A DNA stretch of 64,000 nt, taken from the IMG/VR virus record IMGVR_UViG_3300034069_002177, positions 96,001 to 160,000 of that record. The stretch is one strand, 5' to 3'. Origin of the DNA: a virus. Taxonomy: Duplodnaviria; Caudoviricetes. The position numbers and the translations under genes were made by a program. The notes under the pieces were generated by a model that saw only the letters and a program-made list of their open reading frames with translations, did no database searches and was not told the DNA's origin. Below are positions 7,758-53,157 of the stretch, piece by piece. How positions within the stretch are numbered: position 1 is the stretch's first letter; every line of letters starts with the position of its first letter.

Positions 7758-8027
7758 TTGAATACAGTCACTGACAGTGCCGCCGATGCCACCGTTTGGT
7801 CGGAGTCGGCAGGAATGATGGTGGACTTAGGTGGTCTACTCATCATTATGCTAGGTATCTATCTGCTAGCCAAGGGCGCGTTTCTCTTTTCCGCCGAGAA
7901 ACGTCATGACAAGAATTTCATTGAAGAATACGGGTCTAAGAAGCGAACACCGTTCTTCTTTTTGACGTTTGGCGTAGCGCTTATCGTGTCAGGAATCATC
8001 GTCGTTTTCGTTCCTTTTACAAGCTAA
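7758..8027 (+). CDS. Small two-TM membrane protein
   Basis: Two hydrophobic stretches separated by a basic loop. Confidence 0.7.
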   Translation: MNTVTDSAADATVWSESAGMMVDLGGLLIIMLGIYLLAKGAFLFSAEKRHDKNFIEEYGSKKRTPFFFLTFGVALIVSGIIVVFVPFTS

Positions 8028-8177
8028 CCAGCTAACTACCAAACTAGCAGATTGTGACTTTTTAGCAATACATCGCAAACCGTTTACGGTGTCATTTGGT
8101 TGTGACAAGATAGACCTCACAACAAAGCCGAGGGGTAATACCGCTCTCGGCTCCCACGAAAGTTCTAAGGAGAGTTT

Positions 8178-18276: not shown

Positions 18277-21210
18277 ATGATGGTATCCACACACGAGAAG
18301 CACGCTCTCCGAGTTGCGCGTAAGGCAGAAGACCTGTCTTACGCCGCGCGTTCGGTTTGGGGTAAGACCCAGCGTGGTAAAGATACGACCTTCTGGATGC
18401 CTCTTTACCGGCACTTGGCTGATACTGCACTCGTATCTGCGCGCCTTTACGATGAATACCTGCCGGATGCCGCCAAGCGAGATATTGCTCTTGCTCTGAA
18501 CAGCGAAGATGATGCGCGGACACTAGCTATTTTCCTTGCTGGAATTCACGACCTCGGTAAGTCATCGCCTGTTTTCCTTGCATCAGAAGATGATTACGTC
18601 AATGAACTCAATGATGCATTCATGGGCAAAAATGGTCTTCACGTGCCACGAGGTCTTGATAGATCTCTAATTCGACATGAAGTAATCTCAGCTATTCTCA
18701 TCAAGCGCTTCCTTCTCGAAGAAGGTGTCTCTGAGGCTGTAGCTGATTCTTGCGCAATCGTAGTCGGTAGTCATCACGGCAACCCCCTCTCTCACGAGCT
18801 TCTTGCGTCTTGTATCGGTCGAGAAGACATCATCGGAACTTCTGACCCAGCCTGGCTCGCCGTTCAGCGCGAAATCTTTGACTATGCCGCTGTCATCTCC
18901 GGGGCTAACAAGAGCTTCATTAATTGGCGAGACATGGAGATGTCACGTTCAGCAGAAACCATTCTTATGGGTTTCGTTGTAGCTGCTGACTGGGGTGCCT
19001 CTCAGGGTTTTGGCTGCAATATGTCTTTGAAATCCAAGACCCTCGACATCGACGTAAAGAAAGACACCAGCCGAGCGGTGGTTGCGCTCAACGCACTGCC
19101 TATTCCATCCAAGTGGACACCCTCTGTACCGCCCAACGCAGGGAGTGAATTCTTCCATACGAGATTTGGCTTCCCACCACGACCTGTACAGAAGGCTGCG
19201 CTTGATGCTGTTCGTCCAATGACAGACAGTGGGCTAATAATCATCGAAGCCCCAATGGGTGAAGGCAAAACGGAAGCCGCGCTCGCTGTTGCTGAGGTAA
19301 TGGCTCAGCAAACTGGTGCGTCAGGAGTATTTGTTGCACTACCCACCATTGCTACCTCAGACGCCATATTCAGCCGCGCCCGAAGCTGGGTTAGCAACCT
19401 TCCCGGAAGCCGCAGTGGCATGTCGATGTATCTTTCGCATTCCCGTTCCGGTCTCAACGGTAACTTCGCTGAACTACTAGATGCGGCTCGTGAAGAAGGC
19501 GTCGATGGTGGACACGTCAATAGGTGGCTGTCACAGGGAACCAAGCTGGGTCCGCTATCGAACTTCGTAGTCGGGACTATCGACCAAGTGCTTGTTTCGG
19601 CATTGGCATCAAGGCATGTCACGTTGCGACATCTAGCGCTCGCCAACAAGGTTGTAATTCTCGATGAGGTGCATGCATATGATGCGTATATGAACGTATT
19701 CCTGGCACGAGCGTTGCAATGGTTGGGTTATTACGGCGTTCCCGTCGTGCTTCTTTCGGCTACTTTGCCGACCGATATCCGCAAGGATCTGGTGGTGGCA
19801 TATAACGACGGCTTGAATTCGCGTCGGACGATGAGTGCACCTGTCAAGGAACTTCCTCTTACTTTGGACATCACTAAGATTGCAAAGTCCAAGCAGTCAC
19901 GTAATGACATTGGCGGTATTGACCTGAAGCCGTTGACAACTATTCGGTACCCTTTGATTTCCGTTCTGGACAAGAAAGGTGTGCATGTTCATCACACCGA
20001 AGGTGCATCGAGCAAGAATCCGCTCGCTCTGAATGTGCTTCCTGGCGGTGGTAACGACGAGACGCTCGCGAAGCGTCTTTCTGACCGACTCATCCACGGC
20101 GGGTGTATCGGAATCTTCCGTAATACGGTCGCTCGTTCTCAGCAGACCTATGACGCCATGAAGGCATACTTTGCGGAGCAAGAAATTCCTGTCGAGGTTC
20201 TTCTACTCCACTCGCGATTCATCGGGCTTGATCGCGCCGTCAAAGAACAGCGGCTCAACAACTATCTCGGCAAGGAATTTGCCAAACGACCTAAGCGGCT
20301 CATTGTAGTCGGAACACAGGTGATGGAACAGTCGCTTGATATCGATTTCGATGAAAGCATTTCGGACATTGCTCCTATTGACTCGCTGTTGCAGCGCGCG
20401 GGACGAACCCATCGCCACAACATCCCCAATCGTCCGCGCGTATTCACGGAACCAAGACTTTACATCGCTGGAGTCTCTAACTGGGATGAAGAAGAAGGTG
20501 GGGTGCCTGGTGTCAACCATGCCGCAGAAGCGATTTATCCACTCAAAACACTGTACCGAGCCGTTCACGCCCTGCGCCCTTACGCCCTAGATGACGAGAA
20601 GCGACTACAACTCCCTCGTGATATTTCTGCCTTGGTACGTCGTGGTTATGGCGACCGTGTTCGTCCGCCTGAAAGCTGGAAGGACGAATGGAAGGTAGCC
20701 GAGAAAGAATGGCGCGATCTCATCAAGGATAAACGGGATAAGGCTGACAGTAACTATCTCCTTCCCGCGCCTGAGACCGACATCCTTGACTGGCAAAGCC
20801 ATATCAGCAAGGGTGTTGGAGATAGCGAATCCAAAGCACTCGCGTCTGTCCGAGACATCGATGATGAGGAAGAGATCATCTTGCTCAAGTCGAATGGAAA
20901 GGGTCAGATCCAAACTCTCGATGGAGAGTTTGCTGGTGCTGGTCTCGCAGTTGATTTCGAGAGTAAACCTAATCACGAAACTGCACTTGCTATTGCGGCA
21001 AGCATGTTGCGTCTCCGGGCAAAAGAATTTGCTGCCCTTGACGCTGAGTCGGTTCTATTCGACACCGATCTGATTGGTGAATGGAAAGCGATTCCGATTC
21101 TACGTCACAAGAAAATTCTGGTGCTGCGAGAGAACATGGTTATCAACGGCAAGGGTTTTGCTGTGCAGTACAGCCATGACCGGGGTTTGGAAATGAAGGT
21201 GGTTAAGTGA
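18277..21210 (+). CDS. cas3: Cas3 HD nuclease-helicase (type I-E)
   Basis: WGK...PL..HL.DT, IHDLGK, HHG, EAPMGEGKTEAA, LDEVHAY, LLSATL, HSRF, TQVMEQSLDIDFD and QRAGRTHRH. Confidence 0.97.
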   Translation: MMVSTHEKHALRVARKAEDLSYAARSVWGKTQRGKDTTFWMPLYRHLADTALVSARLYDEYLPDAAKRDIALALNSEDDARTLAIFLAGIHDLGKSSPVFLASEDDYVNELNDAFMGKNGLHVPRGLDRSLIRHEVISAILIKRFLLEEGVSEAVADSCAIVVGSHHGNPLSHELLASCIGREDIIGTSDPAWLAVQREIFDYAAVISGANKSFINWRDMEMSRSAETILMGFVVAADWGASQGFGCNMSLKSKTLDIDVKKDTSRAVVALNALPIPSKWTPSVPPNAGSEFFHTRFGFPPRPVQKAALDAVRPMTDSGLIIIEAPMGEGKTEAALAVAEVMAQQTGASGVFVALPTIATSDAIFSRARSWVSNLPGSRSGMSMYLSHSRSGLNGNFAELLDAAREEGVDGGHVNRWLSQGTKLGPLSNFVVGTIDQVLVSALASRHVTLRHLALANKVVILDEVHAYDAYMNVFLARALQWLGYYGVPVVLLSATLPTDIRKDLVVAYNDGLNSRRTMSAPVKELPLTLDITKIAKSKQSRNDIGGIDLKPLTTIRYPLISVLDKKGVHVHHTEGASSKNPLALNVLPGGGNDETLAKRLSDRLIHGGCIGIFRNTVARSQQTYDAMKAYFAEQEIPVEVLLLHSRFIGLDRAVKEQRLNNYLGKEFAKRPKRLIVVGTQVMEQSLDIDFDESISDIAPIDSLLQRAGRTHRHNIPNRPRVFTEPRLYIAGVSNWDEEEGGVPGVNHAAEAIYPLKTLYRAVHALRPYALDDEKRLQLPRDISALVRRGYGDRVRPPESWKDEWKVAEKEWRDLIKDKRDKADSNYLLPAPETDILDWQSHISKGVGDSESKALASVRDIDDEEEIILLKSNGKGQIQTLDGEFAGAGLAVDFESKPNHETALAIAASMLRLRAKEFAALDAESVLFDTDLIGEWKAIPILRHKKILVLRENMVINGKGFAVQYSHDRGLEMKVVK

Positions 21211-23261
21211 CATCGTTCAACCTTGTTGATGAGCCTTGGATTCCAGTCAATCTGATTAGCGGTGAGGGTGTTGACGTTTCACTAAGAGATCTCTTTGCCC
21301 GCTCTCGTGATATTCGCTCTATCGAGTGTGACAACCCGATGCAGACCGCAGCGGTGGTGAGACTGGTACTTGCTGTAATGTACCGGGCTCTTACGCCTTT
21401 GTTTCTGGCGCAGAAGAATCACGCTAAAAACGCCGATGTCACTCTCTGGAAAATGCTGTGGGACGACGAGACGGGCACACTTGCCAACACAATCGACAGC
21501 TATCTCGAAACATGGAAGAATCGCTTCGATCTATTCGATGCCAAGCGCCCTTTCTACCAAATCGCTGACTTGGAATACAGCAGCGCCGATGAAAGCAATC
21601 GAGGCGAAATCAAGCGCAGCCTTGGAAAGATGATGCCTGACGGTGACATCATCAGCGTTTTCAAGAACAGCGATTTTGCTGCTAAGGTGAGTTATGCAGA
21701 AGCGGCGCGTATTCTCATTGGCTACCATTCGTGGTCAACTCTCGCTCCACTCAGTCCTGTGGTGGGTATTTACCCGGATGACGAGCTAGCTATTTCACGA
21801 CTGTATCCCAAAGGTCATCGCGGTTGGTGTTCTTCAATCGGGATCACCCTCATGGTAGGTCGCAATTTCTATGAGACGGCGATGCTCAACTTCGTCCCCA
21901 GCCAACTCAATTTCAAAGATGTACCTTTCTGGGAAGAGGCTAAGGCTCGAAAAGTGCCGATCCTCTATGAAATGCCAGATGGTCTCGCCAAGCCCATCCT
22001 CAAATCTCGCAATGCCAAACCTGTTGGTCAGGTACAGCTTTTCGTTTGGTTCGCTAAGAGCGTTCGACTAATTCCCGAAAACGGTAAAGTCGTTGCGGCT
22101 ATTTCATCCGAGCACGATTCACTGAGTTCCCGAAGCTCCAATGTACACATGGCTCGACACCATGAAACTCAAACTGCTTGGCGCGAAACGGAGAAAGGTG
22201 AGATGGCGGCGTATCACTTTGTCAGCGACTCGGTTTGGCAGAACATTCCCGCAGTGCTTCCCAAGACTCGTGATGGATTCCTTGCCCCACTCAACGTTAC
22301 ATGGTCGGCAAAGGTCGTCAACTTACTCGGTATTCGGCTACCCGCACGAATTCGCATTATCGGAGCGAGTACCGATGATCGTGCGCAAACATTTCGAGGC
22401 GTTATTGACAAGAGCGTTACCATCTCGTCTTTGTCCAAACTGGATAATCCCGTTGTCACAGCCCGTATTGCAGATACTGCCGAAACGTTGACGAAAATGG
22501 TTAGGACTTACTACTACGGCTTTGCACGCGATGTCCTCTCTACCAAGTACGGGGAGGTGTCCAGCATCCTTTTAGATGCCCTTATGTCGCCAGCTAACGT
22601 TGTCTTGGACAAGTCCTTCGTCTCTTTGTTCCGGCTCGCTACAGACCCGAATGAGCCGAACGTTGATACTGTTATCGATGGCTTGGTCGAACACTTGATC
22701 GAGCTATCTCAGGAAGTAGCCAATGATTCAAACGGAACTGACTTGCTGGGAAAATGGCACCACATCAACGGAGAAAACAAGCTTCTTTCGATTGCTGCCT
22801 CACGCGCAAGATTGTTACGGGGAATTCAGCCCGAACGCAAGAAATCGTTTGGAAAACTGACCGAAGATGCTGGGTTTGTAAGGTGGGCGATCAATAAGAA
22901 CCTCGCCAGCAAAAAGCTGAGCCCCGAAGAGTCCGACTTGGATGAGTTCGTGTTGGGGTTCTGGTCTGGGCGGAAAAATCTACCCAGCGGTGCTCCCGTC
23001 CATATCGTCGAGAAGACTCCTTATGACTCTTTTTCGGTATTGCGCAAGAGTGATGGCGCAGCCTTCGATGAGAGAGTTTCTGACCTTTTCGATGCCAAAG
23101 ATGATGCAACCATCAAGGAGTCCTTACGTCGTCTGGCGGGTGTGGCTAATTCGCAGGGTTATCCGATGGATTTCGGAACTCTCGCGGCTATTGGGAAGTC
23201 GATTCACAATCCCGAACTACGTCTAGAAATCGCGCAAGATATAGCAGACCGCCGTAAGTGA
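21207..23261 (+). CDS. cas8e: Cas8e/Cse1 with an apparently fused C-terminal Cas11/Cse2
   Basis: SFNLVDEPWIPV and GW...G.....GRNFYETAMLNF mark Cse1. The 684-aa ORF ends in FDERVSDLFDAKD...LRRL......G.PMDFGTLA...RLEIAQD, which is Cse2-like. No separate cse2 ORF. Confidence 0.85.
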   Translation: MTSFNLVDEPWIPVNLISGEGVDVSLRDLFARSRDIRSIECDNPMQTAAVVRLVLAVMYRALTPLFLAQKNHAKNADVTLWKMLWDDETGTLANTIDSYLETWKNRFDLFDAKRPFYQIADLEYSSADESNRGEIKRSLGKMMPDGDIISVFKNSDFAAKVSYAEAARILIGYHSWSTLAPLSPVVGIYPDDELAISRLYPKGHRGWCSSIGITLMVGRNFYETAMLNFVPSQLNFKDVPFWEEAKARKVPILYEMPDGLAKPILKSRNAKPVGQVQLFVWFAKSVRLIPENGKVVAAISSEHDSLSSRSSNVHMARHHETQTAWRETEKGEMAAYHFVSDSVWQNIPAVLPKTRDGFLAPLNVTWSAKVVNLLGIRLPARIRIIGASTDDRAQTFRGVIDKSVTISSLSKLDNPVVTARIADTAETLTKMVRTYYYGFARDVLSTKYGEVSSILLDALMSPANVVLDKSFVSLFRLATDPNEPNVDTVIDGLVEHLIELSQEVANDSNGTDLLGKWHHINGENKLLSIAASRARLLRGIQPERKKSFGKLTEDAGFVRWAINKNLASKKLSPEESDLDEFVLGFWSGRKNLPSGAPVHIVEKTPYDSFSVLRKSDGAAFDERVSDLFDAKDDATIKESLRRLAGVANSQGYPMDFGTLAAIGKSIHNPELRLEIAQDIADRRK

Positions 23262-23262
23262 T

Positions 23263-23291
23263 TTGACACGACGACTACACTCAGATACCCT
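23263..23291 (+). promoter_or_regulatory. Internal promoter upstream of cas7
   Basis: TTGACA-17 nt-TACCCT in the cas8e-cas7 gap, followed by an AGGAGA RBS. Confidence 0.65.
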
Positions 23292-23310
23292 TCCGTCAGG
23301 AGAACCATCA

Positions 23311-24381
23311 ATGACAACTTTCATCAACATCCACGCCATTCAAAGCCTTCCTCCATCGTCGCTTAACCGTGATGACAGCGGAGTTCCTAAGAAGGCACTG
23401 TTCGGCGGTACAGAACGCGTTCGGGTTTCTTCTCAGTCATGGAAGTTCGCTATTCGAAAGTTCTTTTCTGATAACTACGACTCCAGCTATATTGGGTGTC
23501 GGACGACTCAGCTTCCTGTGGAGTTCGAAAAGGCTCTACGGTCAATCCGACCCGAAGCCGATGATGCACTGGTGAAAAAGCTGACGAAGACAGTTTTGGG
23601 AGTAGCCGAGAAAACCGAAGAAGACGGGGCGGGATTCGAGCCTGGTTCGGTTGCGGGTTCTAAGATGATTGTCTTCTATAGCCCCGCGCAGTTAGAGGCG
23701 CTCGTTACCATCGCCATCGAGGTGGTTGACGGAAAACGAAAAGGTGTCACTGTTTCTGAGATCAAAGAAGCATTGGTTGGCAAGAACACTGTCGATATCG
23801 CCCTGTTTGGGAGAATGATGACGGCTCAGGCGGAACTAAGTGTTGATGCTGCGGCAAATGTTGCTCACGTCATCGGAGTTGATAAATATGAGTCGCAACG
23901 TGACTCCTTTGTGGGTTTAGACGACAACCTCGGTAAGGCAAAAATCCTGGGCTCCATTGACTTCGTATCTTCGGTCGTCTACCGATACGCATGTATCGAT
24001 GCTGATTCACTCACCAAGAACCTTGATGGTGACAAGACGTTCTCGGCGGAGGCGGCTGGTGCATTTATCAATGCATTCATTCGGTCCATGCCATCGGGTA
24101 AGCAGTCTAGCTTCGCGGCTCATACCCTCCCCAGTTTCGTTCTCGTAACACTTTCAGATAATCAGCCACTCTCGCTTGCTAGTGCCTTCACTCGGGTAAT
24201 TAGCGGCGACGACATTGAAAACGACGCTATTGACGCCCTGGTGGAGAATGCGATGATGATCTCCGATAACTATGGGGAACCGATTGCTGCATTCACGTTG
24301 CATGATGGAACGCATGATATTCCTTTTGCGAAGAAGGTTTCGCTGCCCGACCTAGTTGACTCTGTGAAGAAAGCTTACTAA
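23311..24381 (+). CDS. cas7: Cas7/Cse4
   Basis: FINIHAIQSLPPSSLNRDDSG.PK...FGG..RVRVSSQSWK, DIALFGRM and YRYA. Confidence 0.96.
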   Translation: MTTFINIHAIQSLPPSSLNRDDSGVPKKALFGGTERVRVSSQSWKFAIRKFFSDNYDSSYIGCRTTQLPVEFEKALRSIRPEADDALVKKLTKTVLGVAEKTEEDGAGFEPGSVAGSKMIVFYSPAQLEALVTIAIEVVDGKRKGVTVSEIKEALVGKNTVDIALFGRMMTAQAELSVDAAANVAHVIGVDKYESQRDSFVGLDDNLGKAKILGSIDFVSSVVYRYACIDADSLTKNLDGDKTFSAEAAGAFINAFIRSMPSGKQSSFAAHTLPSFVLVTLSDNQPLSLASAFTRVISGDDIENDAIDALVENAMMISDNYGEPIAAFTLHDGTHDIPFAKKVSLPDLVDSVKKAY

Positions 24382-24384
24382 GTC

Positions 24385-25128
24385 ATGTCATCCGTCGTTC
24401 TTGTCCTTTCTGGTGTACTCCAATCATGGGGTACTACCACTATCGGTCATGCCCGAGCAACAAACAGCTACCCAACCAAGAGCGCCATCGTTGGTCTTGT
24501 TGCAAATGCGCTCGGTAGAGAACGCACTGATACCATTTCGGATTTGGCGAAACTTTCGTTCGGAGTTCGTATCGATATGGCGGGCGTAGTGCAACGTGAT
24601 TATCACACGGTCAGCATTATCACTCAGCCGACTAAAGGTGACAGAGTGAATCGCATCACTGAACGCTATTACTTAGCCGATGCTGTTTTCGTGGTCGTGC
24701 TTAGTGGTACTGATAATGAGCTAATCAAGCAAATCGGAGAAGCATTACAGCGCCCCGCACGACCTTTGTTCCTGGGACGCAAGTCATGCCCTCCTATCAG
24801 ACCAACTTTTCATAGCTACTCAGATCTTGGCGTTCAAGAAACACTGGCTGCTGTTGCTTGGCAGGCTGATATTGCTACGCAGGAATCATTCATCGGTTCT
24901 CATCTCGAATTAGATGTTTACCGAGACCCTACCGATGACATCGAGGGTTTTGACTCTGATGTCATCAATGACCAGCCGAAGAGTTTTGATCCTCATGCTC
25001 GTAGGTATGCATCACGAGGCGTTTACCGCGATGTCGTAAAGATCGAGTTTCCTATTCAGCAGTCAAGAACGACTCCTATTTCTGGTTTCTTTGCGCTGGC
25101 ACAAAAGGTTGCGGAGGCAGCATCATGA
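24385..25128 (+). CDS. cas5: Cas5e
   Basis: L.L.G.LQSWG, PTKSAIVGLVANALGRER, ERYYLADA and LFLGRKSCPP. Confidence 0.96.
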   Translation: MSSVVLVLSGVLQSWGTTTIGHARATNSYPTKSAIVGLVANALGRERTDTISDLAKLSFGVRIDMAGVVQRDYHTVSIITQPTKGDRVNRITERYYLADAVFVVVLSGTDNELIKQIGEALQRPARPLFLGRKSCPPIRPTFHSYSDLGVQETLAAVAWQADIATQESFIGSHLELDVYRDPTDDIEGFDSDVINDQPKSFDPHARRYASRGVYRDVVKIEFPIQQSRTTPISGFFALAQKVAEAAS

Positions 25129-25760
25129 CGTATCTCACCGTCGTTCCTCTGAATGCTTACAGGGCGTCCACTAAGAAGATGCTGTCTTCTCGTCAAGTTG
25201 CTCACGCAACAGTGATGCAGTCATTCGCGCCCAATCAAAATCTCAATGACGCCGATTCAAGAGTTCTTTGGTCGCTTGATGTTTCGGGTCGAGACGTGCA
25301 ACTGACCATTCTGAGTCCAGAGCGGGCTTCTGTAGAGCACATTGTGGAGACCTGCGGATGGACAGCAGCGGGAGATTCTAGCTTCCAGCAAGTTGAATAC
25401 ACCCCGTTGGTTTCGAGTGTTGCAACAGGAAGTCAGTATTCATTTTCTGTCACAGTCAATCCTGTTATTTCGGTCACAGGAAGTTCCAAACGCATAGCGG
25501 TTTCCGAGAAAGACGTAGCTGCATGGGTTGCTTCTAAATTCGGGCGGGAAGGTATGAGAATTATCACCTCAGAAGTAATCTCGTATCGTATTGAATCCTT
25601 CAAACGAGGAAACGGCAAGGTCACTCTGGCGTTGGCTACCGTCACTGGGACATTCCGGGTTGAGGATGCATCAGCCACGCAAAAAGCTCTCGTTGCTGGG
25701 ATTGGTCGTGCCAAAGGATATGGCTGTGGTCTCATCTCACTCAACGAGCAATTAGTCTGA
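25125..25760 (+). CDS. cas6e: Cas6e/Cse3 crRNA endonuclease
   Basis: YLT..PLN, H..VM..F, RVLW.LD and the C-terminal Gly loop GIGRAKGYGCGL. Confidence 0.96.
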   Translation: MTYLTVVPLNAYRASTKKMLSSRQVAHATVMQSFAPNQNLNDADSRVLWSLDVSGRDVQLTILSPERASVEHIVETCGWTAAGDSSFQQVEYTPLVSSVATGSQYSFSVTVNPVISVTGSSKRIAVSEKDVAAWVASKFGREGMRIITSEVISYRIESFKRGNGKVTLALATVTGTFRVEDASATQKALVAGIGRAKGYGCGLISLNEQLV

Positions 25761-25765
25761 TTGGG

Positions 25766-25839
25766 GTGCTCCCAGTGATGGGATGTTCCTCCGTGATACC
25801 GACGTGACAAGAATTCCCCGGCACGCCGGGGTTGCACTC
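25766..25839 (+). CRISPR. Mini-array: divergent I-E repeat (25766-25790), 20-nt spacer (25791-25810), I-E repeat (25811-25839)
   Basis: R1 GTGCTCCCAGTGATGGGATGTTCCT (TCCCA/TGGGA stem); spacer CCGTGATACCGACGTGACAA; R2 GAATTCCCCGGCACGCCGGGGTTGCACTC (29 nt, CCCCGG/CCGGGG stem). Starts 5 nt after the cas6e stop. Confidence 0.8.
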
Positions 25840-25857
25840 CAATCAGATTCACTCAGT

Positions 25858-25886
25858 TTGACTTTCGGGCATAATTGAACTACCGT
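25858..25886 (+). promoter_or_regulatory. Promoter for 25921
   Basis: TTGACT-17 nt-TACCGT. Confidence 0.6.
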
Positions 25887-25920
25887 AGATGTTGTAGTAA
25901 GAACCAGAAAGGACTACAAC

Positions 25921-26325
25921 ATGGCTGTCACTCTAGATTCAATGCCGAACGAGGTCAATGTCAAGGACGCACCTCCCGCTCCTAATCTCGTCAAGGTCGC
26001 AACTCTCCGAGCGGTCACCACTCGCCGTCGTCTGGATCGTTTCTGGCAGATGATTCGCGATGAGGCTCCCACCAGCTATCCCGTTGGCACCTACAGCATC
26101 CCTGGTGAAGAGGATCTGAAGCTCGTGGTGGTCGATGTCATGAAGCCCGCATCAAGCGCAGAGCTTACCGATGACGACACAGCAGTCTTCCCGAAATACC
26201 GTTTCGGTGCAAAGGTCGTCTCTGCCGATTCGATTGCTACCGATCTCGGTGAAATCGGAGTTGCCACTCCTTACGACTACGTAGCTCCCAAGCCCAAGAA
26301 CACTCCCGGTGACGGATTCGTTTGA
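25921..26325 (+). CDS. Hypothetical protein, paralogue of 9483-9905
   Basis: GAAAGGA RBS; RFWQMIRDE...PVGTY...FPKYRFGAKVVSADS. Confidence 0.8.
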   Translation: MAVTLDSMPNEVNVKDAPPAPNLVKVATLRAVTTRRRLDRFWQMIRDEAPTSYPVGTYSIPGEEDLKLVVVDVMKPASSAELTDDDTAVFPKYRFGAKVVSADSIATDLGEIGVATPYDYVAPKPKNTPGDGFV

Positions 26326-27479: not shown

Positions 27480-28523
27480 GTGAGTGAACTCATCGCAACA
27501 CCAGTCACAGACAAGAACGGCAAGCAGACCACCGTTCATAAAAAGCCCGTTACTTCGGGTACCGGTGCCAAGCGTGCATCGAAGGTAGCTCCTAAGAGCG
27601 CCGCCGTCAAAAAGACCTACGAGAAAAAGGGTCCAACTCTTACGGAAAAGCTGGAAGGCTACAAGGAGGAACTCAAGAGCCGCGTTACGGCACTTGCTGA
27701 TGACGCCAATTGGAATCATTACCTCACTTCGATGAGTAAGTTCCATAACTACTCATGGAACAATCAGATCCTCATTGATATCCAAACCAAAGGGCAGGCA
27801 ACTCATGTTGCAGGCTACAAGACATGGCAGTCCTTGGGTCGCACGGTTAATGGCGGCGAGAAGGCTATCGCTATCATTGGATTTCGAAAGATCAAAGTAG
27901 ATGCTACCGACCGTAATGGCAACAAGATTATGGGAGCGGATGGCAAGCCCGAGAAAAAGGAGATTCCCAACTTCTTCGGCACAGGTGTTTTCGACATTGC
28001 ACAGACTTCCGGTGACGCACTACCCGAGGCACACGCCAAGATGACAGCAGAACCCCCTGTTGGTCTCACTAACGACCTTGAAGCAACCATTAAGGCAAAA
28101 GGCTTCTCAGTTGAATACGTAGACAACTTACGTGGAGCTAAGGGCAGCACTTCCACCGATCCGAATCGCAAGGTTGTGCAGATTCTCAGCAGCTTGAACG
28201 ATGGCGAACGAGCCAAGACTCTTGCACACGAACTGTTCCATATCGCCTCTGGTCACATCGAACGTGCCGATGAGTACCACACCGGTCATGGTGGGCAACG
28301 TAACGCTATGGAAGTGGAAGCGGAGTCCGGTGCATACGTTCTTCTGCGTGCTAACGGTATGGACGAGCATGCAGATACCTCAGCGACCTATGTTGCCGGA
28401 TGGGCTGGCGTTCGTGGCGGTAACGACCGTGAGAAAATGGTTGCTAATGCCGCAGAAAATGTTGCCAAAACAACTCGTTCACTTCTTACCGATTTCGAGT
28501 GGCAAAACTCCGACTTAGTGTAG
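27480..28523 (+). CDS. DKNG-tag ArdC-like anti-restriction protein (ssDNA-binding N-domain plus zincin-like domain)
   Basis: W..YL..MSKFHNYSWNNQILI..Q...AT.VAGYKTWQ.LGR.V..GEKAI.I; TLAHELFH and EVEAES.AY. Confidence 0.88.
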   Translation: MSELIATPVTDKNGKQTTVHKKPVTSGTGAKRASKVAPKSAAVKKTYEKKGPTLTEKLEGYKEELKSRVTALADDANWNHYLTSMSKFHNYSWNNQILIDIQTKGQATHVAGYKTWQSLGRTVNGGEKAIAIIGFRKIKVDATDRNGNKIMGADGKPEKKEIPNFFGTGVFDIAQTSGDALPEAHAKMTAEPPVGLTNDLEATIKAKGFSVEYVDNLRGAKGSTSTDPNRKVVQILSSLNDGERAKTLAHELFHIASGHIERADEYHTGHGGQRNAMEVEAESGAYVLLRANGMDEHADTSATYVAGWAGVRGGNDREKMVANAAENVAKTTRSLLTDFEWQNSDLV

Positions 28524-39544: not shown

Positions 39545-40744
39545 ATGTCCGACGCAATTGCACTCACCAAGGCTACCGAGACCGCCACGGTCATCCCCGC
39601 CACCTTCGCCGGTCCTAGCTGGTTCGCCACGTCCGATGAGGGTGTTGCCCAGCAGGCATTCATCGAGACCATGCTCCGCGCTGGTATCCCTCCCATCCTC
39701 TGGGGTCCGCCCGGTTCCGGTAAGACCCAGACCGTCTTCGCCATTGCTCACAAGCTCGGCTATGACGTGCAGGTCGTCATCGGTGCCCGCAAGGAGCCCA
39801 CCTTCCTCGAAGGTATCCCGATTGTCGTCCGTCCCGAGGGCAAGCGCGCCACCACGGTCAACGCTCTCCCCGAGTGGTTCGAGTACGCGATGGCTCACCC
39901 TCGTACCATCATCTTCTTCGATGAGATCGGTTCCATCAGCGAGGACGTGCAGGCTTCGATGCTCTCCGTCATCGAGGAGCGCGAGATCGATGGAGTCAAG
40001 CTGCCCGACGAGGTTCGCTTCATCGCTGCTGGTAACGACATCGACCAGGCGGCGAACGGTCAGTACCTCGCTCCGCCGTTCGCGAACCGTTTCGCGCACC
40101 ACAACTTCAACCTCCCCGACATGGACTGGGTGGACGGTTTCCGCCAGAACTTCGGCAAGCCTGCCGATGACCGCCTCAAGGCTGAGCTTGCTCGACTCAG
40201 CGGTTACCTGTACACCAACAGCACCGCTATCTCGCCCAAGGTGGACACGAACCCCGAGAAGTCGGGCAAGGCGTGGGCTTCGCGTCGCACGTGGACCAAG
40301 CTCGCTCAGGCTCTCGCTCACACCGCACCCGAGGACCGCATCGTCCGCGACATGACAATTGCTTCGCTCGTCGGTCTCGACCAGGGTGCCGCCTTCAAGA
40401 CGTGGGATGCCGCGCTCAACTTCCCCGAGATCGACGAACTGCTCGCTCTCGCCAAGGACGAGAAGCACGACTGGGGTTCCTACGACACCGACAAGGTGTA
40501 CTCGATGCTCGCCTACGCTCTCAACTTCCTCAAGAAGGAGAACTTCGAGCAGGTCGTGGACTTCTTCGTCGCTGTCGGTGACAAGCACCAGGCTGTCGGC
40601 TTCGTCATGTCGGGTCAGCTTGCCTCGCGCATTCTCCCCCTGTTCGGTGTTTCCGAGAGCGAACTCCCCAAGGAGGTGTACGTCCAGCTTGGTAAGCTGA
40701 GCAAGTCGTACAAGCGCACTCAGGAAGCCGCTGGCGGTCGCTGA
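39545..40744 (+). CDS. MoxR/dynein-related AAA+ ATPase
   Basis: LWGPPGSGKT, IFFDEI, FIAAGN and PFANRF.H. Confidence 0.92.
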   Translation: MSDAIALTKATETATVIPATFAGPSWFATSDEGVAQQAFIETMLRAGIPPILWGPPGSGKTQTVFAIAHKLGYDVQVVIGARKEPTFLEGIPIVVRPEGKRATTVNALPEWFEYAMAHPRTIIFFDEIGSISEDVQASMLSVIEEREIDGVKLPDEVRFIAAGNDIDQAANGQYLAPPFANRFAHHNFNLPDMDWVDGFRQNFGKPADDRLKAELARLSGYLYTNSTAISPKVDTNPEKSGKAWASRRTWTKLAQALAHTAPEDRIVRDMTIASLVGLDQGAAFKTWDAALNFPEIDELLALAKDEKHDWGSYDTDKVYSMLAYALNFLKKENFEQVVDFFVAVGDKHQAVGFVMSGQLASRILPLFGVSESELPKEVYVQLGKLSKSYKRTQEAAGGR

Positions 40745-50394: not shown

Positions 50395-53157
50395 ATGGCA
50401 AACGACGAAGAAGAAAAGAAGAAGAGCCTTGCGAGAGGCTTCATCGACTACGTAATCAAGAGCAACGAAGAATCATTAGGGCATGGTCCTTATGGTGCCG
50501 AGTCCGACAGTCACGTTGACGCGAAACCGTATGTCGAGTATTACCAGAATGGCATCTTCGAGGGCTATGACGGTTCTATCTGGAAGTATTACAAGTTCCC
50601 CGCTGACGTTCAGACGGAGTGGCTGAAGAACCCAGAGAACATCATCTACAACCAGAAGTTCTTCACTCAGGCAATCACGGAGTTCGGTACGTTCTTGAAT
50701 GCTCAGTTGGAAAAGACCCGTAATGACATCCGGCGTCCCTTCCACATCCAAATCACGCAATCCGAGTCAACTGGAATTCGTATCCCCAGTGAGCAGGATG
50801 ACCGTGAGGGCAAGGTAACCCAGAAGACTCGCGATTACCTCAAGCGTATGACGGACGGATACACCCGACCAATCTGGCATCAGTACATGGGAGTTCGCCT
50901 TATCCCCGGAACCTTGTTCGGTGACGCATTCGGCATTACCGAAAAGGTCCGTCGATACATCGAAATTATGACCAATCCAGGTGAGATCGACCTCGCTTCT
51001 ATGAGCCGTGACCTTCATGATGTGGACAACATTATGTATGGTGCTGGTTTTAGCGAACTGGACTTCATCGCAAACCCCGAAGACTTCGAGCAGCTTACCG
51101 CTTGGTATGGCGTCTCGGACTCTCAGTTCAACCTTTCTCGCTCGCTACAGACGACGCGTATGAAAGAACCTCTGTCAGGTATGTCTGTCATTACTCCCAA
51201 GTACCAAGAAATCCAGCTATTTGCGTTGAAGCCCCGCGAAGGTGTCAACTTGAAGGATCCCCTAGATCCCGATGCAGCATGGGCTAAGCCTTTATACCGA
51301 CCGACTTCTGAAGTTGTCATGATCAGTATTCGCGGTCAGATTCGTGCCCCGAAGATTGCTGAGAACCTTCTTGAACTGAAAAACATTCGCAAAAATGAAG
51401 CCGGTCGTAAGCTTGGTGACACGTCACGACACGAGGTTGCAGGAATGATTTCTGACCTTGATGCCATCGAGAGGGCTCGATACGTCATCAATGAATACAA
51501 GCTTCCAATGCTCGATAACCTCGAAATTGTTATGGCTGCTAAGGTTAAGGGCGACGGCATTACGAACCAATTGTTCAATAGCCTAAAGAGCTATGACATG
51601 GAGGCTAATCTCCTCGTTGGTCGTCAGCCATTGGGTATTATGGCGTCACTTCCGACATATCCTCGTCAGACTCTGCGTGTTCCTCGTGGCAACACTAAGC
51701 GTCCAGAACTTTCCAACGTCATGCTTCCAGGAATGCTCGCTATGAGCGGACTTTTCCGCAGCACCAAGCCTTGTGCCAACTTTGGTATTCTTGTGGGACT
51801 TGCAACTGCTGGGCACTCGTATGAGGAAATCATGACCGAGGTTGATGGCGCAGCTAAAAATAACCGCGTTCCTGGTATGCTCATCACTGGTCGTCCTGGT
51901 GCCGGTAAGACGCAGCAGCTTCTCCAAATGTCAATTCAAATTGCCAACATGGGTCTCCCTGTTGCCTTCTTCAACCCGAAGAAGGAGAGTACGTTGAAGC
52001 CGACATTTGATCACATTCACGGAATCACGATTTCGATGGAAACCGCTTATCTTGACCAGAACCCCGGTCTTCTTGACCCGGTATTCTTCCTTAAGAACCG
52101 TGGTGACGTTGCTGACCTCGTTTCCGATGCCATTCTTACGGCTAACCGCATGTATGAAGACCGTGGAGCTTCCGCTTCTCAGCGTCGTACCAAGGTTTCA
52201 TCTGAAATTCGTGACCGTGCTCTCGACAAGAGAAACAGAACAACTTTCGACATTTTGTTCGGAAATAAGGCTGTAGGAACCACGGCGATTACTGACACTG
52301 ACATTCTCGACTTCGTTCGCAGCAAGATCAGCATTAGTGCGTTCTGGAAGGCATTCATTGCTCCTACCGCAACAAGCTCGGAATTGCAAAAGCAGATTAC
52401 CAGTGGTCGCTCATTCCTTATGGAATGGGGTAGCTCAATGAAGCTTCCTGACGCGTCCAAGGTTCCCAACGACTACACAGACCCCGAGATTGACACCGTT
52501 CTTTCTATCAACGTTACATTCAAGTACGCCGCCGAGGTTGTTGGAGGCGGTCAGGGTGGCGCGATTGTGGTTGACGAGTCGTGGGTATTGAAGCAGTCTC
52601 GTGAAGCTATGGCTATCCTCACCAAGGGTGGTCGTGAATGGCGTCAGGCTAACATCATGCTTATTATGGGTACACAGCGAATCATTGACTGGATCGATGC
52701 TCGGTCTGAGAAATCAAGCGGCAGTGGTGGAGGCGCAAGCAACATGTCTTCATATTTCGACCGTTACCTCTTCATGGCTATCAACGAAGCTGACGAGAAC
52801 GAATTGTCGGCGTACTTCGAGTTGACGGGTCTTCCCGACACCGATGCGAACCGACGCTGGATTATCGAAGCTGGTCCTCGTAAGGATGGAAAACTTCCTA
52901 ACGGTTACTACATCGACAACATTTACAACTGGGCTGGCGGACTCGTTTGTGGACCCTGGCCGCAATATGAACTCGACTTGGGTCGTACTGACAAGGAGGG
53001 TCTTGCCATGAAACAAAGAGGCGCGGCTACAAAGGCTCAACAGTCTTTCGCCAAGGCAGCGTCTTCGGGCGGTTATGGCGGCGCTTTACTTGATGTTATG
53101 AGCAATGACAACGATTTGGTTTCTGAGTTCGAAGAAAAAGAAGACGTAAACGCGTGA
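50395..53157 (+). CDS. VirB4-like (TcpF/ConE-type) conjugation ATPase
   Basis: LITGRPGAGKT, FFNPK, IVVDESW and GREWR; 920 aa. Confidence 0.85.
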   Translation: MANDEEEKKKSLARGFIDYVIKSNEESLGHGPYGAESDSHVDAKPYVEYYQNGIFEGYDGSIWKYYKFPADVQTEWLKNPENIIYNQKFFTQAITEFGTFLNAQLEKTRNDIRRPFHIQITQSESTGIRIPSEQDDREGKVTQKTRDYLKRMTDGYTRPIWHQYMGVRLIPGTLFGDAFGITEKVRRYIEIMTNPGEIDLASMSRDLHDVDNIMYGAGFSELDFIANPEDFEQLTAWYGVSDSQFNLSRSLQTTRMKEPLSGMSVITPKYQEIQLFALKPREGVNLKDPLDPDAAWAKPLYRPTSEVVMISIRGQIRAPKIAENLLELKNIRKNEAGRKLGDTSRHEVAGMISDLDAIERARYVINEYKLPMLDNLEIVMAAKVKGDGITNQLFNSLKSYDMEANLLVGRQPLGIMASLPTYPRQTLRVPRGNTKRPELSNVMLPGMLAMSGLFRSTKPCANFGILVGLATAGHSYEEIMTEVDGAAKNNRVPGMLITGRPGAGKTQQLLQMSIQIANMGLPVAFFNPKKESTLKPTFDHIHGITISMETAYLDQNPGLLDPVFFLKNRGDVADLVSDAILTANRMYEDRGASASQRRTKVSSEIRDRALDKRNRTTFDILFGNKAVGTTAITDTDILDFVRSKISISAFWKAFIAPTATSSELQKQITSGRSFLMEWGSSMKLPDASKVPNDYTDPEIDTVLSINVTFKYAAEVVGGGQGGAIVVDESWVLKQSREAMAILTKGGREWRQANIMLIMGTQRIIDWIDARSEKSSGSGGGASNMSSYFDRYLFMAINEADENELSAYFELTGLPDTDANRRWIIEAGPRKDGKLPNGYYIDNIYNWAGGLVCGPWPQYELDLGRTDKEGLAMKQRGAATKAQQSFAKAASSGGYGGALLDVMSNDNDLVSEFEEKEDVNA

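Follow-up and report, generated by a model that had tools for sequence, protein, structure and literature searches.

A type I-E CRISPR-Cas locus with a predicted Cas8e-Cas11 fusion and 20-nt guides resembling bacterial tRNA genes on a large mobile element

Introduction

Why would a large mobile element carry a type I-E CRISPR-Cas operon that lacks adaptation genes and is accompanied by a spacer of only 20 nucleotides (nt)? The question is raised by a locus at positions 18277-25847 of a 64,000-nt stretch of viral DNA (the window), which represents positions 96001-160000 of the 202,737-bp IMG/VR record IMGVR_UViG_3300034069_002177; IMG/VR classes the record as a provirus, with a completeness estimate of 96%. 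An earlier note, made from the sequence alone, had suggested that a Cas8e protein ending in a Cse2-like (Cas11) segment and a short spacer together specify a naturally small form of the effector complex Cascade, and had offered repression or plasmid competition as its use. Our analysis points to a different use. We judge it slightly more probable than its opposite that the locus encodes a natural compact type I-E effector, without adaptation genes and carried by very large mobile elements (contigs of 200-500 kb), that is aimed at host tRNA genes and whose Cas3 degrades host DNA. Seen in this way, it looks like a host-directed offensive device and not like adaptive immunity.

A type I-E operon without adaptation genes

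Five densely spaced open reading frames (ORFs) on the plus strand (18277-25760) follow the order cas3-cas8e-cas7-cas5-cas6e, as had been noted earlier. The Pfam and NCBIfam scores of all five proteins far exceed the curated cut-offs, and by Pfam, NCBIfam and Foldseek this one operon holds the type I-E signature proteins Cas8e (Cse1), Cas7e, Cas5e and Cas6e. The first gene, cas3 (18277..21210, 977 amino acids (aa)), encodes an HD nuclease and superfamily 2 helicase (Pfam Cas3_HD, DEAD, Cas3-like_C_2 and Cas3_C; 1e-38). Alignment to the structure 4q2c indicates that its HD motifs (H/HD/HH) and helicase motifs I, II (DEVH), III, V and VI are retained, in agreement with the earlier view that the enzyme is intact. 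It is followed by cas8e (21207-23261, 684 aa, Cse1 family), cas7e (23263..24381, 372 aa; Pfam Cas_CT1975 2e-86, NCBIfam casC_Cse4 2e-72), cas5e (24385..25128, 247 aa; Pfam Cas_Cas5d 9e-39, NCBIfam casD_Cas5e 6e-42) and cas6e (25125..25760, 211 aa; Pfam CRISPR_assoc 1e-38, NCBIfam casE_Cse3 8e-16).

The reported absence of cas1, cas2 and a stand-alone cse2 extends by profile search to the whole 202,737-bp record, in which Cas1 has no match and Cas2 gives nothing over cut-off. A lone Cas2-like match (15.8 bits; window 40019-40174, minus strand), in a 440-aa frame that runs antisense to the gene of an AAA ATPase, is almost certainly spurious. No separate cse2 was found in the record: its sole Cse2-like signal falls within cas8e, and there is no ORF between cas8e and cas7. 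A conserved 290-aa gene upstream of cas3, at best pilin- or fn3-like, is probably not a Cas component. No Rfam families were found in the window.

Cas8e appears to include the small subunit

The Cse1 profile (Pfam CRISPR_Cse1, 1e-60, residues 5-451) stops near residue 451 of the 684-aa Cas8e, and the best Foldseek matches are the Cse1 structures 3wvo, 4f3e and 4an8. The full-length AlphaFold2 (AF2) model was poor at residues 106-413 and confident at 410-684, and its C-terminal part alone was used. There, the helices of the Cse1 bundle (415-543) are followed by a short low-confidence linker (~541-555) and then by a Cse2 fold. On this model the ORF comprises a cas8e body (21207..22853, plus strand; residues 1-~549, Cse1 N-domain and C-terminal helical bundle) and, fused to it in frame, a predicted Cas11/Cse2-fold domain (22854..23261, plus strand; residues ~550-684).

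A separate AF2 model of residues 505-684 (pLDDT 72.7) was compared by VIA-align with 48,161 PDB representative chains. The top six matches were all CasB/Cse2 (4h79, Z 10.6 over 134 aligned residues; 2zca, 8.8; 5u07_B, 8.3; 3wa8, 8.1; 8yb6_K, 7.6; 5h9e_B, 6.1), and the seventh fell to Z 3.3; with Foldseek, the first 11 matches of the C-terminal model were likewise all Cse2. The sequence match of the tail to Cse2 is weak (Pfam E 0.02, NCBIfam E 0.04) and lies below the curated cut-offs, at 15-16 bits against 24.6 for PF09485 and 14 bits against 28.5 for TIGR02548. Since Cse2 is not provable by sequence, the Cas11 assignment rests on the fold; the Cse2-like segment proposed in the earlier note is thus borne out at the fold level and barely visible by sequence. 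That note had also considered that Cas11 might be made from an internal start codon. In the linker before the Cas11 domain, none of the eight homologous genes described below shares a conserved ATG, GTG or TTG with a Shine-Dalgarno sequence. Given the predicted Cse2 fold of the tail and the lack of a conserved internal start, we read the protein as a true Cas8e-Cas11 fusion. An incomplete literature search found no description of a natural Cas8e-Cas11 fusion in subtype I-E.

The modelled Cas11 domain carries a short beta-hairpin insert (window 22950-23010; Cas8e residues ~584-629) with the family consensus RK.L.DG.STHI.EK, and the profile segment of this insert matches a 2162-aa repeat protein, P0011, 15 times.

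All six guides of the record are 20 nt long

Beside cas6e, on the plus strand, lies a repeat-spacer-repeat unit (25770-25831) enclosed by a closing stem, whose RNA is predicted to fold at -47.3 kcal/mol (z -5.0). The 5' arm of the outer stem (25756..25769) pairs with its 3' arm (25834-25847), the latter in a degenerate 3' part of the second repeat that has no functional handle or further spacer. The hairpin of the first repeat (25770..25783) has 5 bp and a GUGA loop and is the predicted Cas6e site that makes the crRNA 5' end, with the cut placed between G25782 and A25783; from its GGGA 3' arm onward the sequence is invariant in relatives. The 8-nt 5' handle ATGTTCCT (25783..25790) lies within a block, GGGATGTTCC, that is invariant in five aligned relatives. 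Then come the 20-nt guide (25791..25810), here called S6, which is antisense to bacterial tRNA-Glu, and the second repeat (25811..25831), made up of GAATT (25811-25815) and a 6-bp hairpin (25816-25831) supported by compensatory stem changes, the predicted 21-nt 3' handle. The mature crRNA predicted from 25783-25831 is thus 8+20+21 = 49 nt long, the same figure as proposed earlier; its processing is a prediction. The spacer register was set with a canonical I-E array that shares the handle, found on the metagenome contigs L070/L109, in which a 29-nt repeat ending in GGGGATGTTCCG is followed by a 32-nt spacer. That canonical array may mark the type of host system from which the module of the element derives.

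The single spacer described in the earlier note has the length stated there, and it is not alone. A second array (record positions 76272-76530), ~19.5 kb before the window start and ~45 kb upstream of the unit beside cas6e, holds five spacers (S1 to S5) at a 48-nt period, each a 28-nt repeat plus a 20-nt spacer. Its repeats have covarying stems and the handles ATGAACCA, ATGATCCT or ATGAACCG. The cas locus therefore does not hold the sole guide of the replicon. The repeat hairpins and a ATGNNCCN handle are present, yet all six spacers are 20 nt long and not of the ~32-33 nt usual in I-E. No 32-nt array, which the earlier note had envisaged as a possible outside source of guides, contradicts the short design on this replicon, since all six guides found there are short.

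The second array sits within a cluster of 64 tRNA genes (record 64899-81841; 14-31 kb before the window start), between tRNA-Val and tRNA-Asp genes. The cluster lies on one strand and covers all 20 amino acids.

Several features of the unit beside cas6e stand apart from its role as a guide. The outer stem (13-15 bp, varied in sequence and still complementary) is also found in L004, L001, L012, L079 and L119. Counting this stem, both repeat hairpins and a further hairpin within the spacer, the precursor resembles a cloverleaf of four arms (z about -4 to -5). The stem could act on stability, on release from the cas mRNA or on processing. L002 has no outer stem; its handle pairs instead with a complement farther downstream, as does that of L012 in addition to its outer stem. 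Directly after the unit, all relatives have a conserved promoter, TTGACT-17-TAnnnT (window 25858-25925), and a hairpin 3' of it covers the ribosome-binding site of a conserved ORF of 131-134 aa (25921-26325) without a Pfam match.

Fusion and short geometry are fixed in relatives

The database search returned only eight Cas8e homologues, all of the fused length (664-693 aa) and 44-62% identical. The order cas3-fused cas8e-cas7-cas5-cas6e recurs around them, on contigs of up to 229, 231 and 495 kb, and neighbours are shared as well (DUF4352, NTP-transferase, ArdC-like and nrdIE genes). A cas3 of 936-983 aa with the same Pfam domains is present in every relative, and a stand-alone cse2 in no relative locus. 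All of these sequences are metagenomic, and the source runs are labelled as plant and food metagenomes. Related loci were absent from IMG/VR; isolate and metagenome-assembled genomes yielded ordinary Cas8e only, at 26-34% identity, and INPHARED phages partial matches only, at 28%.

Seven distinct versions of the guide unit were collected (the window, L004/L103, L001/L066, L002/L003/L097, L012/L073, L079 and L119), from lineages whose Cas8e proteins are 44-62% identical where comparable. The distance from the start of the handle to the second hairpin is 32-33 nt in all seven (8+20+5, or 8+20+4 in L012/L073), and the stems carry compensatory substitutions (CCCTGG/CCAGGG, CCTCGA/TCGGGG, CCCC/GGGG). 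The earlier note had proposed asking whether the fusion co-occurs with ~20-nt spacers, and it does so in seven lineages and in all six guide units of the record. The spacer beside cas6e is near-identical in relatives, with changes only at guide positions 8, 10, 15, 18 and 19-20. The guide is thus conserved although the Cas proteins are only about half identical, and it is most probably inherited and not acquired. The reading of this system as a small Cascade finds comparative support in the fusion and in the fixed 20-nt geometry.

A Cascade with four Cas7 and one Cas11 is predicted

How large a complex would such a guide assemble? In native mass spectrometry, E. coli Cascade on a crRNA shortened by 12 nt has the composition Cse2(1)Cas7(4)Cas5(1)Cas6e(1), with Cse2 loosely bound, and interference in E. 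coli requires spacers longer than 20 nt (PMC5159557). In Streptococcus thermophilus, complexes are stable, and their Cas7 and Cse2 filaments stay in register, when the length changes by a multiple of 12 nt; shortened spacers allow R-loops to form without locking, which is deemed a prerequisite for Cas3 cleavage (PMC6859484). The background on shortened spacers in the earlier note agrees with both papers. Taking the guide length of 20 nt, the mismatch period of 6 nt described below and these published measurements together, we infer four Cas7 subunits and one tethered Cas11. A natural 20-nt system would need exactly one Cas11, and a tether to Cas8e would both set this number and cure the weak binding. 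A predicted complex of the Cas11 domain with two Cas7 scored 0.00, with the partner poorly folded, and speaks neither for nor against this make-up.

That the complex is instead of ordinary size or of some other make-up appears improbable to us; it might, for example, contain six Cas7 in part empty, a tail without Cas11 function or an internally initiated Cas11, the fusion and the 20-nt spacers being real all the same. The stoichiometry is inferred and non-ATG internal starts are possible, which leaves some room for such arrangements. Against them, in two species the crRNA sets the size of Cascade, with one Cas7 for every 6 nt (PMC5159557, PMC6859484), the 6-nt period of mismatches along the 20-nt guide agrees with a backbone that long, and no conserved start codon with a Shine-Dalgarno sequence precedes the Cas11 domain.

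The guides match bacterial tRNA genes

The pattern used to seek targets was the reverse complement of each guide, with guide positions 6, 12 and 18 left free (N) and GTTC after it; the reversed pattern was the control. The guide beside cas6e, S6, matches tRNA-Glu genes (UUC or CUC) with at most one mismatch in 72 of 401 Actinomycetota genomes, exactly in 17 and in none with the reversed control. S1 matches tRNA-Ala(CGC) exactly in two of five genomes and S5 matches tRNA-Val(CAC) exactly in one of five, both at sites that lie inside tRNA genes by the Rfam model. S4 matches tRNA-Arg(ACG) with one mismatch, at tRNA position 37, in 86 of 301 genomes (control 0). Four unpublished genomes are among the one-mismatch matches (G002, G049 and G121 for S6, G430 for S4); without them the counts are 69/398 and 85/300, and the exact matches are independent of them. 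The L001/L066 version of the guide, with A changed to G at position 8, fits a natural tRNA-Glu variant, GGCGGCAGCACGG, found among the S6 matches.

The resolved targets span tRNA position 33 (32 in tRNA-Glu) to 52, and the target end that pairs with guide position 1 is always flanked by G53-T54-T55-C56 of the T-loop. Because this flank occupies the place of a type I protospacer-adjacent motif (PAM), the putative PAM, read on the non-target strand, would be AAC. For the three guides with exact matches (S6, S1 and S5), 48 of 48 tested read positions pair, and positions 6, 12 and 18 are mismatched in seven of nine instances, about the expectation for random bases. This pattern looks like the footprint of a Cas7 backbone, in which each sixth base is flipped out, and the mismatches at these positions confirm the spacer register independently.

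The element's own tRNA genes do not fit the guides: each of 62 T-loop-anchored tRNAs has at least four read-position mismatches to every guide. A tRNA-Ala GGC gene of the element (record 80198) matches all seven seed positions of S1, with four mismatches beyond; as the nearest approach to self-targeting, it could be a partial-match site for binding without cleavage.

Scans for guide targets in the record itself and in the loci of relatives (two registers, seed-only and mismatch-tolerant) gave chance-level matches only, and self-targeting or autoregulation of the CreTA kind was dropped as a candidate for this reason. Repression or plasmid competition, as first proposed, gives way here to the targeting of tRNA genes, given a conserved guide that matches tRNA-Glu genes and has no self-target in the record. 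We see next to no chance that the unit beside cas6e is a regulatory mini-CRISPR of the CreR/CreA type acting on one of the element's own promoters (to autoregulate cas or to repress a toxin): it resembles CreR in that its flanking repeats are degenerate, its one pseudo-spacer is conserved and it lies beside the cas operon (bioRxiv 10.1101/2023.03.10.532045), and a conserved promoter lies directly downstream, but no PAM-flanked partial target beyond chance occurs in the 202.7-kb record in any register, there is no canonical array or adaptation module to regulate, the match to tRNA-Glu is perfect at all read positions, and five more guides of the same design lie in a separate array.

Discussion

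The mechanism that we propose runs as follows. Cas6e would cut crRNAs of 48-49 nt (8-nt handle, 20-nt guide, ~21-nt hairpin) from the unit beside it and from the array in the tRNA cluster. Around each crRNA, Cas5, Cas6e, some four Cas7 and one Cas8e would assemble, with the Cas11 domain of Cas8e as the single small subunit. The hard-wired guides would then base-pair with positions 33-52 of bacterial tRNA genes on the sense strand, the target being DNA and not RNA, with T-loop positions G53-T54-T55 in the PAM place (AAC on the non-target strand). The 64 tRNA genes of the element would escape through their differences at the read positions. During takeover, the complex would recruit Cas3, which would nick and degrade host DNA from several dispersed, mutation-intolerant tRNA loci, and the element would meanwhile supply replacement tRNAs. 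Degradation by Cas3 is favoured because Cas3 is intact and kept in every relative and because adjacent nrdIEF genes handle nucleotide supply. A fuller version would have the fixed guides read host tRNA genes from anticodon to T-stem with the T-loop as PAM, the host tRNA genes destroyed or silenced and 64 guide-resistant tRNAs installed in their stead, with the tether allowing a 20-bp R-loop to license Cas3; we offer this version tentatively, as a serious possibility that falls somewhat short of probable.

A number of points weigh against cleavage of host tRNA genes by a compact Cascade. Engineered short Cascades fail to lock, so that cleavage needs a co-adaptation that is here assumed. For a resident prophage or plasmid, should the element be one, cutting the tRNA genes of its host constitutively would be lethal. 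AAC is not known as a preferred I-E PAM in E. coli. The sequence profile of the last ~180 residues of Cas8e found no PDB Cse2 and no stand-alone Cse2 among 1.84 billion representatives. S2 has only a near match, to tRNA-Pro(GGG) with two mismatches, and S3 no convincing target, its match count being at the control rate. The genome target searches covered Actinomycetota alone, and no single tested genome matches all six guides. One 11-kb contig, L010, carries the same fused operon with no guide unit after cas6e (7950-8070). Finally, no RNA sequencing run with the locus was found, and crRNA processing and expression are predicted.

In L010, the stop codon of cas6e leads directly into the conserved promoter, and any guides must be elsewhere on that element. 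As to the nature of the present element, its ribonucleotide reductase gene matches many unrelated phages, and a 1297-aa ORF has no phage match. Besides replication genes, it encodes an ArdC-like anti-restriction protein (window 27480-28523) and an AAA_10 (VirB4/TraC-like) ATPase (50395-53157), which suggest a conjugative element, such that the provirus label may fit poorly.

The alternative that survives best keeps the same compact complex and the same tRNA targets and has it bind only; we regard it as rather unlikely, though worth keeping in view. A 20-bp R-loop would not license Cas3, and the complex would block transcription of host tRNA genes, which would shift translation to the tRNAs of the element or make the host dependent on the element in the manner of an addiction. 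Cascades with shortened spacers bind without locking R-loops (PMC6859484), and the requirement for spacers longer than 20 nt in E. coli (PMC5159557) points the same way. Cleaving the host chromosome would be suicidal for an element that may be a resident provirus or conjugative, and repression has been proposed for host-targeting phage systems by Al-Shayeb et al. (PMC7162821). On the other hand, a cas3 that has all its catalytic motifs here and the same domains in every relative would be difficult to account for were Cas3 never recruited, and a tethered Cas11 could have re-tuned locking.

Competition between elements, in which the guides would hit the tRNA genes of rival phages or plasmids, or of incoming DNA from related bacteria, and not the host chromosome, appears to us more doubtful still than a complex of another make-up. 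Spacers of virus-borne mini-arrays mostly target related viruses (PMC11656645; PMC7162821), and host-like tRNA genes are common in large phages. The exact matches found here are nonetheless chromosomal tRNA genes of ordinary bacterial genomes; the tRNAs of rival elements are usually diverged, like those of this element; and guides aimed at rivals would strike the host too if its tRNAs match.

Each ingredient of host tRNA targeting by a compact Cascade has a precedent; the combination was not found described. With canonical I-E systems (E. coli K-12, Thermobifida fusca, Thermus thermophilus) the locus shares the five Cas families, a stem-loop repeat of 28-29 nt, an 8-nt handle of the AUGNNCCN type and the Cse2 fold. 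It differs from them in having no cas1-cas2 and no separate cse2, spacers of 20 nt instead of 32-33 nt, conserved guides and carriage by a mobile element. In other subtypes, the Cas8 gene supplies Cas11 by internal translation (I-B, I-C and I-D) or Cas8f has a C-terminal helical bundle (I-F), and Cas11 is either lacking or made as a separate polypeptide with several copies. Small-subunit function thus likewise lies within the large-subunit gene, whereas here the Cse2-fold domain appears to stay attached, at a copy number of one.

The engineered I-E Cascades shortened by 12 nt (Kuznedelov et al. 2016, PMC5159557; Songailiene et al. 2019, PMC6859484) are alike in the 20-21-nt guide and in filament periodicities of 6 and 12 nt, and the E. 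coli complex has the Cas7(4), Cas11(1) make-up predicted here. They are laboratory constructs in which Cse2 is free and loose, R-loops lock poorly or not at all and interference is weak, whereas the present system is natural and fixed in its lineage, with a Cas11 that appears to be tethered. The adaptation-less CRISPR-Cas systems of huge phages (Al-Shayeb et al. 2020, PMC7162821) likewise reside on large elements, have no Cas1/2/4 and have compact arrays with spacers against host transcription and translation genes; one huge phage targets the host sigma-70 gene while encoding its own (PMC7162821). The text of that paper contains no I-E Cas8e-Cas11 fusion, 20-nt spacers or tRNA-gene guides, whereas the resolved guide matches here are tRNA genes.

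Type V-K CRISPR-associated transposons (Hsieh and Peters 2021, bioRxiv 10.1101/2021.02.06.429022) resemble the locus in private, hard-wired short guides, degenerate repeats and tRNA-gene targets. They use Cas12k for Tn7 transposition beside one tRNA gene, with no nuclease, whereas here Cas3 is intact and the six guides appear to read different tRNAs inside the gene body. TniQ was not found in the record (TnsA/B/C were not searched for), and Cas3 is retained, unlike in CRISPR-associated transposons. CreR/CreA (bioRxiv 10.1101/2023.03.10.532045) share degenerate repeats around one conserved pseudo-spacer beside cas genes; here, by comparison, no self-target was found, complementarity to an external essential gene family is full and no canonical array lies alongside.

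The modular ruler of Cascade, with one Cas7 per 6 nt and one Cas11 per 12 nt, has so far been shown only with engineered crRNAs, and the short complexes so obtained work poorly. If the reading as a compact, host-directed effector is true, nature would have fixed a 20-nt version with a single Cas11 tied to Cas8e, which would allow the requirements of R-loop locking and Cas3 licensing to be tested directly and would provide a smaller type I effector for engineering (five genes and a crRNA of ~49 nt). It would also be a clear case of CRISPR switched from defence to offence, with inherited guides, host genes that are hard to mutate and a near-universal tRNA motif as PAM. For the biology of such mobile elements, it would give a functional reason to carry a complete tRNA set, and part of the host's translation apparatus would in effect be replaced under RNA guidance.

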